A stretch of 32,000 nucleotides of DNA. Source: Ktedonobacterales bacterium (GTDB lineage Bacteria; Chloroflexota; Ktedonobacteria; Ktedonobacterales; JADMIN01). Shown here one piece after another: positions 10,055-29,712 of the stretch. The translations under genes were made by a program, and so were the position numbers. The stretch lies in contig CP126532.1 of assembly GCA_030167145.1 (NCBI GenBank), positions 4,080,001 through 4,112,000 on the forward strand, written 5' to 3'. The notes under the pieces were generated by a model. The model saw only the letters and a list, made by a program, of their open reading frames with translations. It was not told where the DNA came from and did no database searches. Each line of letters opens with the position of its first letter. Position 1 is the first letter of the stretch.

Positions 10055-10393
10055 TCCCGTTCGCACGGATGAGCGCGGCAGTAGGTCACGTAGCGAAGCG
10101 CAGCACTTCAATCTCAGCGCCCTGGGCGACGGCCTGCTCTGCCAGGGCAAGCGCGCGCGTGGCCTCGATTCTGCGAGAGCGGGTTCGTGGTCGTAGGCGC
10201 AGTGCGAGTCAACCGAGCAATACAATACCCCCAACATGAATAGAGCCTAAGGGCCAGCATGCGGCTTGACGCTGCTTGCCACGGCATGACTCCACTTGAC
10301 CAACGGCATTGCTCACCACCATCCAACGCACGATGTGTATCTGTGCGTAGGTCCAGGTCCACCTATCAGGTCTCGCCATCAGGAGGCTTCATC

Positions 10394-11827
10394 ATGGCAG
10401 CGGTTCAATTTGTCACCAGCATGCCTGTGACCGCTACGCGCGCAGAGCGCCATGCCGCTGGCAAAGATCTCCGCTCAAAAACGCCCCGCACCAGTCACGG
10501 CGCATGGGCCGCCGCCGCTGATCGTCCCGACCCGATCCGCCTGCTCGAACAGTCCAACCGCACCCGCGTGCCAGAGCTGGTGCCCATCCGCTATGGTCGT
10601 ATGTCACTCTCCCCTTTCACCTTCCTGCGCGGCGCGGCGATCATCATGGCCAGCGACCTCGCGGACACCCCCATATCCGGCCTGCGCATGCAGATCTGCG
10701 GCGACGCGCACCTCAGCAACTACGGTGGCTTCGCTACGCCCGAACGCATCCTGGACTTCGATGTCAACGACTTCGATGAGACCCTGCCAGGACCCTGGGA
10801 ATGGGACATAAAGCGCCTGGCCGCCAGCATCGTGGTCGCGGGCCGCCAAAATGCCTACACCGCACAGGACAATCACCAGGCAGTCGTAGACAGCATCCGC
10901 GAGTACCAGACTTCGATGCGCAGCCTGGCACAGATGGGACGGCTTGACGTGTGGTATCAGCATATAGACCTGGAGGAGATCCTGGGAATAGTCAAAGGCA
11001 AAGAACTCAAGCGTATCCGCAAGCAAGAGCACAAGGCCGCCCACCATACCAGCGAAGGGGTCTTTCCCAAGCTGGCCGAAGTGGTGGATGGACACTACCA
11101 AATCAAAGATGAGCCGCCGCTGATCGTACACGTGGCCGAGCAGGCTCCCATCAAGACCAAACACAACGGCAAGGCAAAAGGCGCCGCCACCATCACCGCG
11201 CAGGATGAACATGAACAGATCAAGGGCGCCTTAGCGGCCTATAGCGCAACCCTGCCCGAGGCATGCCGCCAACTCCTCAGCAAGTATCGCTTTGTAGACG
11301 TTGCGCGCAAAGTGGTCGGCGTCGGCAGCGTGGGCACGCGCTGCTGGGTCGCGTTGTTCATGGCCGGCGGTGACGGAGACGACCCGCTCTTCTTGCAGAT
11401 CAAAGAAGCCGACGCCTCCACGCTTGAACGCTACCTGGGCGCAAGCGCCAACGCCAATCACGGCGAGCGCGTGGTGCAAGGGCAGCGCTTGATGCAGGAA
11501 GCCAGCGACATCTTCCTCGGCTGGACCCATGTGAACGTGGACCTCTACGTGCGGCAACTACGCGATATGAAATGGTCGGTTGATATCGAAACCATGACCA
11601 GACATGAGTTCGAGCAATACACCCGGCTCTGTGCCATGGCCCTGGCGCGTGCCCACGCGCGCACCGGCGACCCAGCGATGATCAGTGGCTACCTGGGCAG
11701 CAACGATATCTTTGCGGAAGCCATTGCCCTCTTCGCCGAAGCGTATGCCGATCAGACCGAACGCGATCATGCCGCCCTACTCGCGGCGATCAAAGACGGC
11801 CGCGTTCAGGCAGAGGTGGATGTATGA
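10394..11827 (+). CDS. DUF2252 family protein (function unknown)
   Basis: AGGAGG at 10381-10386 with the ATG at 10394. Family-typical blocks: RYGRMSLSPFTFLRGAA, CGDAHLSNYGGFATPERILDFDVNDFDETLPGPWEWDIKRLAAS. Confidence 0.8.
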   Translation: MAAVQFVTSMPVTATRAERHAAGKDLRSKTPRTSHGAWAAAADRPDPIRLLEQSNRTRVPELVPIRYGRMSLSPFTFLRGAAIIMASDLADTPISGLRMQICGDAHLSNYGGFATPERILDFDVNDFDETLPGPWEWDIKRLAASIVVAGRQNAYTAQDNHQAVVDSIREYQTSMRSLAQMGRLDVWYQHIDLEEILGIVKGKELKRIRKQEHKAAHHTSEGVFPKLAEVVDGHYQIKDEPPLIVHVAEQAPIKTKHNGKAKGAATITAQDEHEQIKGALAAYSATLPEACRQLLSKYRFVDVARKVVGVGSVGTRCWVALFMAGGDGDDPLFLQIKEADASTLERYLGASANANHGERVVQGQRLMQEASDIFLGWTHVNVDLYVRQLRDMKWSVDIETMTRHEFEQYTRLCAMALARAHARTGDPAMISGYLGSNDIFAEAIALFAEAYADQTERDHAALLAAIKDGRVQAEVDV

Positions 11828-11895
11828 CGCGCTGCTGAGATTACTCGCGGCATCATGCGCTTTTGCTCATTACTGCGGACACCTACGCGGTCTCC

Positions 11896-11914
11896 AACCC
11901 GCGCAGGCGGGTTT
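11896..11914 (+). terminator. Possible weak intrinsic terminator after the DUF2252 gene
   Basis: AACCCGC-GCAG-GCGGGTT hairpin (7-bp stem, 4-nt loop) followed by only TTT. It lies 69 nt after the stop codon. Confidence 0.3.
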
Positions 11915-11970
11915 CGCGGCGGCACGCCATTCAGGCGCGGTTTCAACCGCCCGCCCGTGCCGTGTCCGCT

Positions 11971-12005
11971 CCCATTCCCATTCCCATCCCCATCCCCGCG
12001 TCCCC
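11971..12005 (-). repeat. C-tract hexamer repeat; G-quadruplex-type motif on the minus strand, i-motif-type on the plus strand
   Basis: CCCATTCCCATTCCCATCCCCATCCCCGCGTCCCC: six C3-4 tracts separated by 2-4 nt loops (tracts at 11971, 11977, 11983, 11988, 11994, 12002). Confidence 0.6.
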
Positions 12006-12146
12006 ACCTGACCGCTGCTGACCCCATCTGACCGCGCGCCACCACCCACCCCGCATGCTACACTACCCTAACGACCGCTTCCCGCGCCGCGAAGGACCAC
12101 GCCCCCATGTTGATGACAATAAATCGGCCACATCGGCCACTGGTAG

Positions 12147-12168
12147 GGCAGACAGGAGAATGTCTGCC
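12147..12168. other. Perfect 8-bp-arm palindrome GGCAGACA-GGAGAA-TGTCTGCC (founder copy of the palindrome family)
   Basis: The arms at 12147-12154 and 12161-12168 are exact reverse complements. The same arms recur in the 44-bp repeats downstream, with the loop in the opposite orientation (TTCC versus the complement of GGAGAA). Confidence 0.8.
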
Positions 12169-12210
12169 ATCTACCTGCACAAATCGGCAGAATCGGCAAC
12201 TCCCATTATC

Positions 12211-12342
12211 GGTGGGGGGGACATTCCTGTCTGCCAGCGGCCACCTCGGCCACTGGTGGGGCGGACATTCCTGTCTGCCAGCGGCCACCTCGGCCACTGG
12301 TGGGGCGGACATTCCTGTCTGCCAGCGGTCACTCCGGCCACT
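12211..12342 (+). repeat. 44-bp tandem repeat x3, each unit carrying the palindrome GG[C/G]GGACA-TTCC-TGTCTGCC plus a CGGCCAC doublet
   Basis: Unit GGTGGGGCGGACATTCCTGTCTGCCAGCGGCCACCTCGGCCACT begins at 12211, 12255 and 12299. Palindromes lie at 12216-12235, 12260-12279 and 12304-12323. A diverged fourth unit lies at 12128-12168. Confidence 0.9.
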
Positions 12343-13084
12343 CCGGCAATTGCACAAATCGGCAGAATCGGCAACTCCCCTCTGTGTCCATCACCCGAAA
12401 TTGCGGCGAAAACGGCGAAAAATCTCCCGACATCCCCAGCCAGCTCTCGTCATTCACCCCCAACATGCTCGCGAAAACGGCAGAATCGGCAACTCCGCCA
12501 ACTCCGGCAACTCTCATCTGCGGCGAAAACGGCGAAAATTATCGGTCATCTCTTGTCATCTCTTGTCATTGGAGCCGCAAAATCGGCAGAATCGGCAACT
12601 CACATACCGGCAACTCTGGCCACTGCGATCAACACAAATCTGCGGCGAAAACGGCGAAAAATCTCTACCCATTTCCCGTCATTTCCGCTCATATCCCCCC
12701 AACAACGCCGCAAAATCGGCCACTTCGGCCACTGCCCTCAACGTGCAAATCGAAATATCGGCAAAATCGGCAACTGCCTTCACGACCACGAATATCGGCC
12801 ATTTCGGCCACTGGCGCCTGTACCGCCAGCGTCTCGCTGGCAACTGCGGCAACTACCCTTCACGAGCCAATCGCAAAATCGGCAGAATCGGCAACTCCGC
12901 GCGACCTGTGTGGACGGGATTACCCGTGGCATTCATGCTACGTCCTCGCCCCACCACCTGGCCCGCCCCCATGCGCCCGCTCCCCCGCGCCCTTGCCGCC
13001 GCAATCGCCCATGTGGTACGCATACCCAAGGAAGCGGGTGTTTCGCGCCGGAATATGCCAGCGAAGGAGAAGGAGGTGTACGCG

Positions 13085-14623
13085 ATGCAGGTGGTCACGG
13101 TTGCCGAGATGCGCGAGATCGAAGCGCGCGCCGAGCGAGACTATGCCCTCAGCTCGCCGATGCTGATGGAGCACGCCGGGCGCAGTGTCGCCGAATGGCT
13201 GCGGGCGCGGCTGGGCGGCGAGATGCGCGGGCGCAATGTGCTCGTCTTCGTTGGGCCGGGCAACAACGGCGGCGATGGCCGGGTGATGGGCAAGTATCTC
13301 GCACAGTGGGGCGCGACCGTCACCTACTACGCCTGGAAAGAGCGCCGCATGGAAGTGGGTAGCCGCCTCATCCCTGTCAACGACGATCTCGCCGCCGTGC
13401 GCGAAGCCCTGGGCCGCGCCGATGTCGTCGCCGACGCCCTGCTCGGCACCGGCGCATCACGCCCACTCGACCCCGCCATGCGTCACCTCATCGCCCTGGC
13501 CCACGACGAGAAGCAGCGCCGTCCGCGTCTCACGCTGCTCGCCGTAGACCTGCCAACCGGCCTCAACGCCGACACCGGCGCGGTTGATGAAGGCGTATTC
13601 CACGCCGATTTCACCGTCACCCTCGCCTTCCCCAAGGTCGGCCTCTTCATGTTCCCCGGCGCGAACACTGTTGGCGCGCTGGAGGTCGGCGGCATCGGCC
13701 TACCCGCCGACATGCCCATCACCAGCGGCCTGGAACTGCTCGATGCGCCGCTGTTGCGCTCGCTCCTGCCAGCGCGCCCGATGGAGAGCAACAAAGGCAC
13801 GTATGGCAAAATCATGGCGCTGGCTGGCTCGGCGCAGTATATCGGCGCGGCGTATTTCGTCTCCGCCGCCGCCGCGCGCATCGGCGCGGGCCTCGTCACC
13901 CTGGCCACCACGCCTGAGCATGCAGTGTTCTACGCCATGCGGCTGCCTGAAATCACCTATGCGCTGCTGCCGCCAGAGAGCGCCCCACCAGAGGAACGCG
14001 CCGACGCGGTGCTGAGTGCGCTGGCGGGTTACACCGCGCTGGTGATCGGGCCAGGGCTGGGGCAGAGCGACGCCACATGCGCCATGCTCGAACGAGTGCT
14101 GACGGGCATCACCGCGATCCCTGATACGCAGCGCCCACGCTTGATCGTAGACGCCGACGGGCTGAACAATCTGGCGCAACTCGAACGCTGGTGGCAGCGC
14201 CTGCCCGCCGATACGGTCATCACCCCGCATCCAGGCGAGATGGCGCGGCTGCGCGGCGGCGAAAAGGTCTCCGGCGGCGAAATAGACCGGCTGGCGGTGG
14301 TCCGCGACTGCGCCAAGGCGTGGAATCTGGTCGTCGTCTTGAAGGGCGCGGCGACGCTGATTGCCGCGCCCGATGGTCGCACGCGTGTGAACTGGCCGGG
14401 CAACGCGGCGATGGCCACCGCTGGTACCGGCGACGTGCTCTCCGGCACGGTGGGCGGGCTGCTGGCGCAGGGCATGGCCCCGTTCGACGCCGCCAGCGCC
14501 GCCGTCTACCTGCACAGCCGCGCGGGCCTGCTGGTGAGCGAGCGCACCGGCGACGCCGGGCTGCTCGCGGGCGACCTGCTGCCCCAACTACCAGTCGCGC
14601 TCAAACAGTTGAAACACGGGTGA
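13085..14623 (+). CDS. nnr: Bifunctional NAD(P)H-hydrate repair enzyme Nnr (YjeF_N epimerase + ADP-dependent dehydratase)
   Basis: GGAGAAGGAGG (13066-13076) lies 8 nt before the ATG at 13085. N-terminal domain VLVFVGPGNNGGDGRVMGKYL. C-terminal carbohydrate-kinase domain KGTYGKIMALAGS...TAGTGDVLSGTVGGLLAQG. The 838-aa ORF in the track is an in-frame read-through artefact of the upstream repeat region. Confidence 0.9.
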   Translation: MQVVTVAEMREIEARAERDYALSSPMLMEHAGRSVAEWLRARLGGEMRGRNVLVFVGPGNNGGDGRVMGKYLAQWGATVTYYAWKERRMEVGSRLIPVNDDLAAVREALGRADVVADALLGTGASRPLDPAMRHLIALAHDEKQRRPRLTLLAVDLPTGLNADTGAVDEGVFHADFTVTLAFPKVGLFMFPGANTVGALEVGGIGLPADMPITSGLELLDAPLLRSLLPARPMESNKGTYGKIMALAGSAQYIGAAYFVSAAAARIGAGLVTLATTPEHAVFYAMRLPEITYALLPPESAPPEERADAVLSALAGYTALVIGPGLGQSDATCAMLERVLTGITAIPDTQRPRLIVDADGLNNLAQLERWWQRLPADTVITPHPGEMARLRGGEKVSGGEIDRLAVVRDCAKAWNLVVVLKGAATLIAAPDGRTRVNWPGNAAMATAGTGDVLSGTVGGLLAQGMAPFDAASAAVYLHSRAGLLVSERTGDAGLLAGDLLPQLPVALKQLKHG

Positions 14624-23847: not shown

Positions 23848-24348
23848 CTACGGCATAGGTGGATATGCCGGATTGATGACTTGGAAACCCTCGAACCGCG
23901 CGATAGTGGAGAGGCGTGTATCTGCTGTGATAAAAATGAGTTCATCCGAGAGATTCCTGGCAGCCAGGAGCGCAGATGCGAGTTGTAGCGCATCAAGGCT
24001 ACGAATCGGGTGCGGCTCCGTCGCCGCATAGGTGCTGCAAAGAGTGGCAGCCAGCGTCACCGTGAGCGGTGATAGCGGAACGATGGTGTAGACCGGGGTA
24101 CTTCGCGCAGGATCACTGAGTATAATGTGACGCTCGAATGGATTGACCATGGCGTCTACAAATGAATGGTGAAGGTTCTCACGCCGCCCGGCTCTTCGGA
24201 GTGCAGCTACAACCTCAACCTGGGCAAGTTGCGATAAATGCAAAGACGGCCGCGTATGGGACTCGCACACGGCTCTAACCCAATTGCTGCCTAGTTCATA
24301 ATAGTACCGCTTTACGATGGCGCTGCTGTCGAAGAAATACTGCGGCAC
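23848..24348 (-). CDS. vapC: PIN-domain ribonuclease toxin (VapC-like)
   Basis: GTG start. The PIN acidic residues are in the expected context: FFDSSAIVKRY (N-terminal Asp), AQVEVVAAL (Glu), SLDALQLASALLA (Asp), FITADTRL (Asp). The start overlaps the upstream ORF stop by 1 nt (TAGTG). Confidence 0.8.
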   Translation of the reverse strand: MPQYFFDSSAIVKRYYYELGSNWVRAVCESHTRPSLHLSQLAQVEVVAALRRAGRRENLHHSFVDAMVNPFERHIILSDPARSTPVYTIVPLSPLTVTLAATLCSTYAATEPHPIRSLDALQLASALLAARNLSDELIFITADTRLSTIARFEGFQVINPAYPPMP

Positions 24349-24593
24349 TACTCGCCCCGATCCTCATCCACCGCTTCAGCGGCGGGTTCGCCGGGTCGCT
24401 TTTGCGCCCTTTGCCCTTCGGAAGTATTCCATAACTGCTCGATCTCTTCGCCATCGCGCAAAATGCTTGCGTATTCCTCGTCTGAATATGGTGGCAAACG
24501 ATGTCCGATGTGTGGATTCAGTTGCTTGACTTCAGCAGCGCCTCGTAGGATCAACGCTTCCAATTCAGGAGTATGCTTTTTGTTCAAGGCCAT
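24348..24593 (-). CDS. Putative cognate antitoxin (81 aa, acidic C-terminus, family not recognised)
   Basis: Its position and 1-nt translational coupling to vapC support the call. It has an acidic tail ...EAVDEDRGE. I see no RHH, AbrB or Phd signature. Confidence 0.55.
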   Translation of the reverse strand: MALNKKHTPELEALILRGAAEVKQLNPHIGHRLPPYSDEEYASILRDGEEIEQLWNTSEGQRAQKRPGEPAAEAVDEDRGE

Positions 24594-24810
24594 GACGCTA
24601 CTCCTCGCGCGCTCTTCTGGCTATGCTCGATAGAGGCCACCCAATGCTTTGCAATAGTCTACCATATGCCAGCATGTTTGATACAGGCATCAGCATCGTA
24701 TTGTGTGCTTCAAATGCTTCTGGCAATCTGTGCAACGCTGCCACTAGCGCCATACAGGGCGATTCCCCTGCCACACGAGCCGCGAATGTAGCGGGGGAAT
24801 ACGCTTGACT

Positions 24811-29630: not shown

Positions 29631-29712
29631 TGGCGCACCACCTGCTCGCACACAATGGCGCACCACCTGCTCGCACACAATGGCGCACCACCTGCTCGCA
29701 CACAATGGCGCA
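29631..29712. repeat. Perfect 25-bp tandem repeat x3.3 (TGGCGCACCACCTGCTCGCACACAA) in the P450 upstream region
   Basis: Identical copies at 29631-29655, 29656-29680 and 29681-29705, a partial copy TGGCGCA at 29706-29712, and a degenerate relic TGGCGCACTGCTCGCGCGAA at 29738-29757. CGCAC recurs every 12-13 bp. Confidence 0.95.

Follow-up and report, generated by a model that had tools for sequence, protein, structure and literature searches.

We describe here a 777-base non-coding repeat array (positions 12121-12897) in a 32-kb stretch of Ktedonobacterales DNA, called the window below, which covers approximately 4,080,001-4,112,000 of a closed 5.07-Mb contig (JGI 3300045419 Ga0494333_323). The array lies in the gap between a DUF2252 gene (10259-11827) and the gene for a bifunctional Nnr (nnr, 13085-14623), and it is co-directional with both. 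It is real and statistically extreme, and it fits none of the described families that were tested. Judged from its sequence, it is probably a multi-site docking platform for a protein rather than junk. We read it as selected because its sites are conserved next to decayed spacers and because the same 21/22-mer is found with unrelated spacers in another class of Chloroflexota. As to the molecule that would be read, we tentatively and only slightly favour the plus strand RNA over the double-stranded DNA (dsDNA).

The initial annotation of the window had described the 1257-bp gap (11828-13084) as holding a strand-locked array of stuttered 9-bp doublets, and its counts were reproduced. Within 12121-12897, CGGC occurs 33 times on the plus strand and twice on the minus strand, while GGC[A/C]ACT (18 copies) and TCGGC (19 copies) have no copy at all on the minus strand. 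The cores form about 17 clusters, each with two to four 9-bp half-sites in direct succession (NN-CGGC-NNN), all on the plus strand; 38 half-sites can be recognized by eye and 33 have the exact CGGC core. The doublet consensus is (A)AT-CGGC-NNN-AT-CGGC-MAC-T, and the best-conserved half-site is the last (3') one of a cluster, CGGC[A/C]ACT. Three doublet subtypes can be distinguished (AGA/AAC, CAC/CAC and GAA/GAA), and both halves of a doublet almost always share the same subtype. Successive CGGC cores are exactly 9 apart in 15 of the 32 distances, and the base autocorrelation shows a peak at lag 9 (0.406; the baseline is 0.264) and further ones at 44 and 121. The share of bases that fall in immediate 9/10-bp duplicates (at least 7/9 identity) is 58.8%, close to the 60% first estimated; shuffles average 2.2% and never exceed 10.8%, the flanking genes have 3-5% and the flanks of the gap 0%. 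Tandem Repeats Finder together with a repeat search recovers the 9-bp doublets, two 10-bp stutters, a 44-bp tandem in three copies and a 15-copy family of 23-nt doublet units.

On a larger scale the array is built from blocks that are conserved to very different degrees (Table 1). The 22-mer AAATCGGCAGAATCGGCAACTC is present in four exact copies, at the positions first given for them, and in two near-copies, the first of which had also been noted; it has no copy on the minus strand of the window and 0 are expected in shuffles. The claim that the array has no reverse-complement copy is correct for the doublets. It does not extend to the hairpin module, which occurs four times, three times as GGCGGACAttccTGTCTGCC and once in the inverse orientation as GGCAGACAggagaaTGTCTGCC; only two weak long-range inverted pairs were found. 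When the three higher-order units are compared with each other, identity is 95-100% in the 22-mer and 92-100% in the 25-mer, whereas the spacers reach only 49-68%, which is the level of shuffled spacers (43-58%). Judged by its sequence, the 44-bp tandem is a young duplication and the units of about 120 bp are older. The sites are irregularly spaced and without helical phasing: doublet units start 9-127 bp apart, and the start-to-start distances in the 22-mer family are 175, 118, 106, 175 and 121 bp. Across the whole gap nested repeat periods of 6, 9, 10, 14, 44 and about 120 bp can be seen, and these include words without CGGC.

The motif is also found in other genomes. An exact 19-mer scan of 185,579 species-representative genomes returned 23 single matches, two of them real (L003 and L022). 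The corresponding metagenome scan returned 50 single matches, of which only the soil contigs L185 and L156 are real, and both represent the L022 locus; the host contig is not in that collection. L003, a metagenome-assembled genome (MAG) of an uncultured Chloroflexia, carries nine units NCGGCA-RAAN-GGCAA in one orientation, with cores 9 nt apart. These units lie 40-62 bp from each other, their spacers are unalignable, and the array is placed between co-directional genes with the motif in sense. In L022, a Ktedonobacterales MAG, and in the two soil contigs the exact 22-mer has a second copy 57-60 bp off (L022 5608-5695, L185 2352-2440, L156 about 250-335). This pair is in frame and on the sense strand of a coding sequence (CDS) for a sucA-like 2-oxoglutarate dehydrogenase E1, where it encodes ...AEKSAESAT...FPAESAT... 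in an Ala/Pro/Ser-rich linker near the N-terminus. Similarity between the arrays is restricted to the motif, a 21/22-mer common to the window array, L003 and L022. A position weight matrix built from the units placed 18 of its 19 window sites in the array and found nothing above chance in the other 31 kb of the window; L003 has 8 sites and L022 has 2, and a single weak match came from about 80 kb of DNA from relatives. With a looser half-site-pair pattern, 20 kb of extra host DNA showed no array. That the words might be dispersed over the genome as an ordinary REP/MITE-like family, which had been named as a refutation, was not borne out in the DNA covered: no further sites exist in the 52 kb of host DNA, out of 5.07 Mb, that was scanned or in the roughly 80 kb of relatives, and the 19-mer is real in only two other genomes. 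A tblastx comparison of L003 with the 52 kb of host DNA showed generic ABC-ATPase similarity only and no shared neighbours, and in the literature on Ktedonobacteria and Chloroflexi we found no report of such arrays.

Plasmids and phages gave no blastn match to the array. Viral scans with an 18-mer, a degenerate doublet, two spacer 20-mers and a GCGAA 20-mer returned only chance matches (none at all for the spacer 20-mers), phage iterons and a coding 27-bp repeat. The probable iterons are 9-bp TCGGCAACT repeats in two viral contigs (L059, 6720-6990; L037, 9480-9850), where two, three or four of them follow each other directly and inverted copies also occur. They lie in an AT-rich gap of a replication module, with a VapE-type primase-helicase gene on one side and VRR-NUC/SNF2 genes on the other; by its layout this gap is probably a phage origin with iterons. 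The 27-bp repeat is in a third viral contig (L092, 10850-11244; …KIGSSGNSA…), and its DNA unit ATCGGCAGCAGCGGCAACTCC is identical to the array 22-mer at 18 of 21 positions, a likeness that we take as a coincidence produced by the search pattern.

Table 1. Features of the array and of the gap between DUF2252 and nnr, in window positions.
Feature	Position	Strand	Remarks
Whole array	12121-12897	+	about 17 clusters of contiguous 9-bp half-sites
First doublet, ATCGGCCAC ATCGGCCAC TGG	12123-12143	+	
Other CCAC-/CAAC-type doublets	12606-12625, 12713-12734, 12792-12813, 12837-12855	+	
Hairpin module, inverted orientation, GGCAGACAggagaaTGTCTGCC	12149-12170	+	doublets on both sides
22-mer AAATCGGCAGAATCGGCAACTC, exact	12181-12202, 12356-12377, 12580-12601, 12876-12897	+	
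22-mer AAATCGGCAGAATCGGCAACTC, near-copies	12474-12495, 12755-12776	+	1 mismatch; 3 mismatches
44-bp tandem, three copies	12211-12342	+	units 91-98% identical; hairpin GGCGGACAttccTGTCTGCC and CCAC-type doublet AGCGGCCACCTCGGCCACT
25-mer TGCGGCGAAAACGGCGAAAAATCTC, GCGAA-type doublet	12402-12426, 12519-12543, 12641-12665	+	92-100% identical
Three higher-order units (118/106/132 bp)	12351-12711	+	order: 22-mer, spacer, 25-mer, spacer
Non-CGGC 10-bp stutter, GTCATCTCTT x2.5	12545-12569	+	
Second non-CGGC 10-bp stutter, CATTTCCCGT/CATTTCCGCT	12670-12698	+	
No TAA/TAG/TGA in any plus frame	12145-13084	+	940 nt
Hairpin AACCCGC-GCAG-GCGGGTT, then TTC	11897-11917	+	about 70 nt past the DUF2252 stop
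Candidate extended -10 into the array, TGC-TACACT (TGCTACACT)	12056-12064	+	resembles the nnr promoter signature TG-n-TAC-nn-T
Probable nnr core promoter, TTGCCG-N18-TACGCA	12994-13023	+	position kept in 6/6 relatives; about 100 bp downstream of array end

One question that is raised by the position of the array is whether it belongs to nnr. In six relatives (68-76% Nnr identity) the region upstream of nnr is 105-343 bp long, follows different upstream genes and holds no array. Synteny breaks at 11828-13084: in the relatives (L196, L199-L203) nnr is preceded by a gene for a TreT-type glycosyltransferase or for a histidine kinase, and not by DUF2252. A ribosome-binding site and a promoter are conserved directly upstream of 13085. 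A long nnr leader, one of the options first put forward, is unlikely because this conserved core promoter lies downstream of the array, and a conserved or primary nnr leader was rejected on the same position and on the six relatives without an array. The candidate -10 element that faces into the array was not called by a consensus promoter scan, and a terminator scan of the locus found none on the plus strand; the hairpin behind the DUF2252 gene may, by its sequence, be a weak terminator. The L003 array has a strong sigma-70-like promoter (TTGCGA-16-TATAAT, 10/12 matches) about 110 bp upstream and facing it, and some 80 bp beyond its other end lies a TGG-TATGCT -10-like element of the ABC-ATPase gene.

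Another question is whether the array could be translated, and here the stop-free stretch in Table 1 needs an explanation. It has 0 stop triplets where dinucleotide shuffles have 14.6 +/- 2.9; after removal of redundant repeat copies there is 1 against 7.3 (P ~0.003), and the non-repetitive right flank alone (187 nt before nnr) has 0 against 4.7 expected. The real genes of the window have stop triplets at 72-79% of the expected count, and the other intergenic regions of the window show no such depletion. ATG, GAT and GCT are depleted as well, and for ATG and the stop triplets this concerns the plus strand only. The array might accordingly be taken for an N-terminal extension of Nnr (the 838-aa open reading frame 12107-14623, or the 740-aa JGI call) or for a separate repetitive protein, given that all three plus frames are open, that an ATG at 12107 follows GAAGGA in frame with nnr and that the JGI annotation has the longer protein. 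We give these coding alternatives almost no credence. The exact 22-mer falls in all three phases (start positions mod 3 of 1, 2, 1 and 0), as the early argument against selection at the protein level had it, the translations are Cys/His/Arg-rich nonsense, and the promoter and ribosome-binding site are conserved just before 13085. Three- and six-frame translations searched against 5.8 billion proteins returned only a self-match (P0001), which is the mis-called 740-aa Nnr itself. The 120 best-scoring Nnr homologues have about 484-553 aa and start at the equivalent of 13085. Because all plus frames are stop-free, the open reading frames 12107-14623 and 12055-13362 are artefactual, and the 740-aa call (TTG start within the array, 12401-14623; 10001-12223 in L145) is an artefact of the stop-free repeats.

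With regard to structure, the plus strand RNA folds with z = -1.1, no more than shuffles do, and the minus strand with z = -3.9, which is probably due to G-U pairing in this G/U-rich strand. The plus strand is C-rich and G-poor, and the GC skew across the gap is -0.10 to -0.30. C-tracts on the plus strand bracket the array, with (TCCCAT)x4.7 on the left (11965-11997) and GCCCGCCCCCACGC x2.3 on the right (12944-12992); because of them the minus strand has runs of G-tracts that could form a quadruplex. As for known RNA families, a scan of the window with Rfam 15 gave no match at gathering thresholds, and permissive scans of 11700-13200 (E<=10) and of the L003 array (E<=5) returned nothing of relevance, so that the Rfam check suggested at the outset found no family for the array. 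A weak miRNA-like match is the reflection of the inverted repeat at 12149-12170, and a match to CRISPR-DR28 at 11895-11918, outside the array, is below threshold (29.1 bits, gathering score 35). By Pfam no Rep, Par or initiator gene was found in the window or among the JGI gene calls on either side, and there are no Cas domains; transposase and integrase are absent from the window and from the 10 kb on either side, in agreement with the early remark that transposase and integrase are missing.

A mechanism that would fit these data is a selected, multivalent and orientation-specific binding platform. Each site would be made of 9-nt half-sites that follow one another directly, usually two but sometimes three or four, with CGGC as their invariant core. 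The factor that reads it would be sequence-specific and would contact two cores at a distance of 9 nt, as a tandem-domain protein or a head-to-tail dimer could do. Nested tandem duplications with steps of 9/10 bp, 44 bp and about 120 bp would have enlarged the array, with selection keeping the sites while the spacers decay; tandem duplication can account for the growth and for the uniform orientation, and it does not cover the persistence of the sites. We further infer that a plus strand transcript may be the substrate; it would act in the manner of a sponge or decoy, or else as an untranslated regulatory RNA that titrates or recruits the factor. This RNA reading is supported by the sense orientation of the motif in all three loci (window, L003 and L022), by promoter-like elements that face into both arrays (window and L003), by the irregular and non-phased spacing, by a plus strand that is rich in C, poor in G and predicted to be unstructured and by the depletion of ATG and stop triplets on that strand only.

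Several observations speak against this explanation as a whole. A shared sense orientation in three independent loci has a chance expectation of about 1 in 4, and since both arrays lie just upstream of a promoter, upstream sites on dsDNA would fit equally well. In the predicted folds the CGGC cores are unpaired at 0.285 against 0.539 for the rest, and so they have no excess exposure, unlike the GGA loops of CsrB. The L003 array has no stop depletion. The array is missing upstream of nnr in all six relatives, in a comparison that is made at 68-76% Nnr identity. Finally, mutational stutter contributes to the pattern, because the halves of a doublet share their subtype and because non-CGGC words stutter at 10 bp.

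The same platform could also be read as dsDNA, namely as an upstream cluster of direct-repeat operator or iteron-like sites. The protein recruited or titrated there could be a transcription factor or could be of an initiator-like or partition-type kind; alternatively, the cluster could separate DUF2252 from nnr as an insulator or a polar roadblock. We consider this dsDNA reading doubtful while still a serious contender. The conserved nnr -35 follows about 100 bp after the end of the array, the L003 array is similarly placed before its -10-like element, and a few arrays per genome would suit a cis-acting chromosomal element; contiguous 9-bp direct repeats also serve as iteron-like sites, as in the TCGGCAACT repeats of the viral contigs, although this is an analogy that came from our own search pattern. 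Against it are the irregular spacing (9-127 bp) without helical phasing, and the 9-bp period itself, which puts tandem half-sites off-phase on B-DNA. Most dsDNA regulators do not need a strict single orientation, and the L022 sites are inside an essential-looking CDS. The Pfam search found no Rep, Par or initiator gene, and the locus has neither a strongly AT-rich unwinding region (its lowest GC is 53%) nor a switch of GC skew. A functionless, locally expanding micro- or minisatellite, in which a founder 9-mer stuttered and was then duplicated on a larger scale, would make the shared orientation a mere consequence of tandem duplication, and it agrees with the nested periods of 6, 9, 10, 14, 44 and about 120 bp in which non-CGGC words take part. 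It also agrees with half-sites that share a subtype within a doublet as recent duplicates do, with the absence of the array at nnr in 6/6 relatives across a synteny break, and with breaks of a short-read assembly at about 11920 and 12929 that are compatible with repeat-driven or heterogeneous assembly. Yet uniform neutral decay cannot yield motif blocks of 92-100% identity beside spacers at shuffled level, and the same 21/22-mer with its 9-nt architecture and unrelated spacers is found in another class (L003) and in L022, which makes the satellite rather unlikely. The three hypotheses offered at first, a protein platform, an RNA sponge or leader and a satellite, are still the live options, with two restrictions: the long leader is unlikely, and the pure satellite is weakened because of the contrast between motif blocks and spacers and because of the motif arrays in other Chloroflexota.

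It is improbable that a mobile or guided system left the array as its trace or uses it as a target field. In the mobile version the array would consist of footprints of an element that was inserted and excised repeatedly, with 9-bp target duplications at a preferred CGGC-containing target, and in the guided version of target or decoy sites of about 22 nt for a small RNA or a transposon-associated guide. The immediate 9-10-bp duplications do look like target-site duplications, the conserved unit is about 22 nt, the L022 pair resembles an in-frame insertion in the linker of a CDS, and relatives have IS605/TnpB genes. Neither the window nor the 10 kb on either side has a transposase, an integrase or terminal inverted repeats, the window holds no antisense 22-mer, and the constant AGA/AAC asymmetry in L003 and the window is not expected of simple duplications; to our knowledge, excision footprints are not an established bacterial phenomenon. 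A replication origin of the chromosome or of an integrated element, made of DnaA-box-like 9-mers, is highly improbable. About 38 9-mers lie within about 0.8 kb, actinobacterial oriC has a comparable number of 9-mers, and TCGGCCACA agrees with the DnaA box TTGTCCACA at 7/9 positions. But most half-sites reach only 5-6/9, all sites have one orientation, and the L003 units are not DnaA-box-like. The neighbourhood also lacks dnaA, dnaN and rep genes, an AT-rich unwinding element and an inflection of the skew. We also considered promoter arrays of the sigma-54 or -35-like kind, repeats of type III toxin-antitoxin systems, coding repeats of the collagen-like or the ribosomally synthesized and post-translationally modified peptide (RiPP) kind and variation of the diversity-generating retroelement (DGR) type; each failed on sequence pattern or gene context.

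The array is a source of annotation artefacts, as in the 740-aa Nnr call, and may also be behind a break in short-read assembly. In such an assembly of the same strain (SRR22113990, identical proteins) no contig crosses 11920-12929, that is, the array and its left flank. One contig (L211/Logan) ends at about 11920, near the hairpin at 11897-11917, and another (L001) starts at 12929; repeats, coverage or strain heterogeneity may be the cause. Elsewhere in the window, a perfect 25-bp tandem repeat, TGGCGCACCACCTGCTCGCACACAA x3.3, lies at 29631-29712 in a 184-bp gap between a cytochrome P450 gene (start 29598, minus strand) and an HTH_31/PD40 gene (stop 29782); it may have arisen by a very recent duplication, or it may be a direct repeat that works like an operator. 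A PIN-domain toxin with a small upstream open reading frame (23848-24600, minus strand) has the appearance of a VapBC-type pair, and a second PIN_3 pair is found just beyond the window (L208, 4176-4879).

Regulation at the post-transcriptional and nucleoid level has hardly been explored in Chloroflexota, the actinomycete-like Ktedonobacteria among them, and we know of no decoy or sponge element in this phylum. A speculative suggestion, which we hold with considerable doubt, is that Chloroflexota carry an undescribed class of multivalent and strand-specific titration elements, arrays of CGGC-N5-CGGC doublets with about 22 nt per site. Such an element may sequester or recruit a conserved, patchily distributed factor, which may be a protein or a guide RNA. 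If true, it would be the first sponge- or decoy-type element in Chloroflexota, with an architecture unlike that of CsrB, CrcZ or iterons. As the motif is identical across classes, has a single orientation and occurs in few arrays per genome, it offers a defined 22-nt bait for the factor that would read it, as well as a simple pattern for finding the whole family. If the array is neutral instead, it would be an unusually clear record of a 9/10-bp stutter process.

The comparison with known systems shows in which respects the array stands apart. From oriC it differs in that the best match to TTATCCACA/TTGTCCACA is 7/9 and most are 5-6/9, in its single orientation and in lacking dnaA/dnaN and a skew inflection. 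Like CRISPR arrays, L003 and the central window array alternate units of about 22-25 nt with unrelated spacers. Unlike them, the units are 66-100% identical and of three subtypes, the spacers vary from 0 to about 100 bp and some hold further half-sites, there are no cas genes and the only CRISPR-like Rfam match is sub-threshold and outside the array; the view that it is not CRISPR can therefore be kept. With REP/BIME and MITE families it has in common that it is made of short intergenic repeats and includes a hairpin module in four copies. It is unlike them in having no copies elsewhere in the host DNA and relatives that were scanned, in a main unit that is a direct doublet and not a palindrome, in its strict single orientation and in the lack of terminal inverted repeats and target duplications. 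Minisatellites or variable-number tandem repeats resemble it in the head-to-tail copies at 9, 10, 44 and about 120 bp and in the breaks of short-read assembly, and differ from it in that its conservation is site-specific against decayed spacers and its motif is common to different classes.

Closer parallels are found in systems that gather a protein on many sites. Iterons and centromere-like arrays, such as the 22-bp R6K iterons and R1 parC, also have clustered direct repeats of about 22 bp with two sub-sites in one orientation. By the usual description of iterons, as direct repeats of about 17-22 bp in one orientation, the window array qualifies: its plus strand carries all six members of the 22-mer family and all 15 doublet units. 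Its half-site word TCGGCAAC is identical to that of the phage example (L059/L037), a match that was chosen by our own search pattern and is thus an analogy and not a homology. In contrast to iterons, the array is irregularly spaced, has neither a rep or par gene next to it nor an AT-rich unwinding element, and is found in a chromosomal housekeeping context. The sponge RNAs CsrB/RsmZ and CrcZ have GGA in hairpin loops or AANAANAA as their motif, in place of the CGGC doublet with its 9-nt period. Compared with CsrB/RsmZ, the array is without an Rfam match and its cores are not predicted to be exposed. As regards an independent transcript, promoter-like elements lie upstream of both arrays, and no plus strand terminator was found. 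What the array has in common with CsrB/RsmZ and CrcZ is a non-coding stretch with many short motifs in one orientation at irregular spacing, in which the motif alone is conserved from one species to another and duplication alters how many sites there are.

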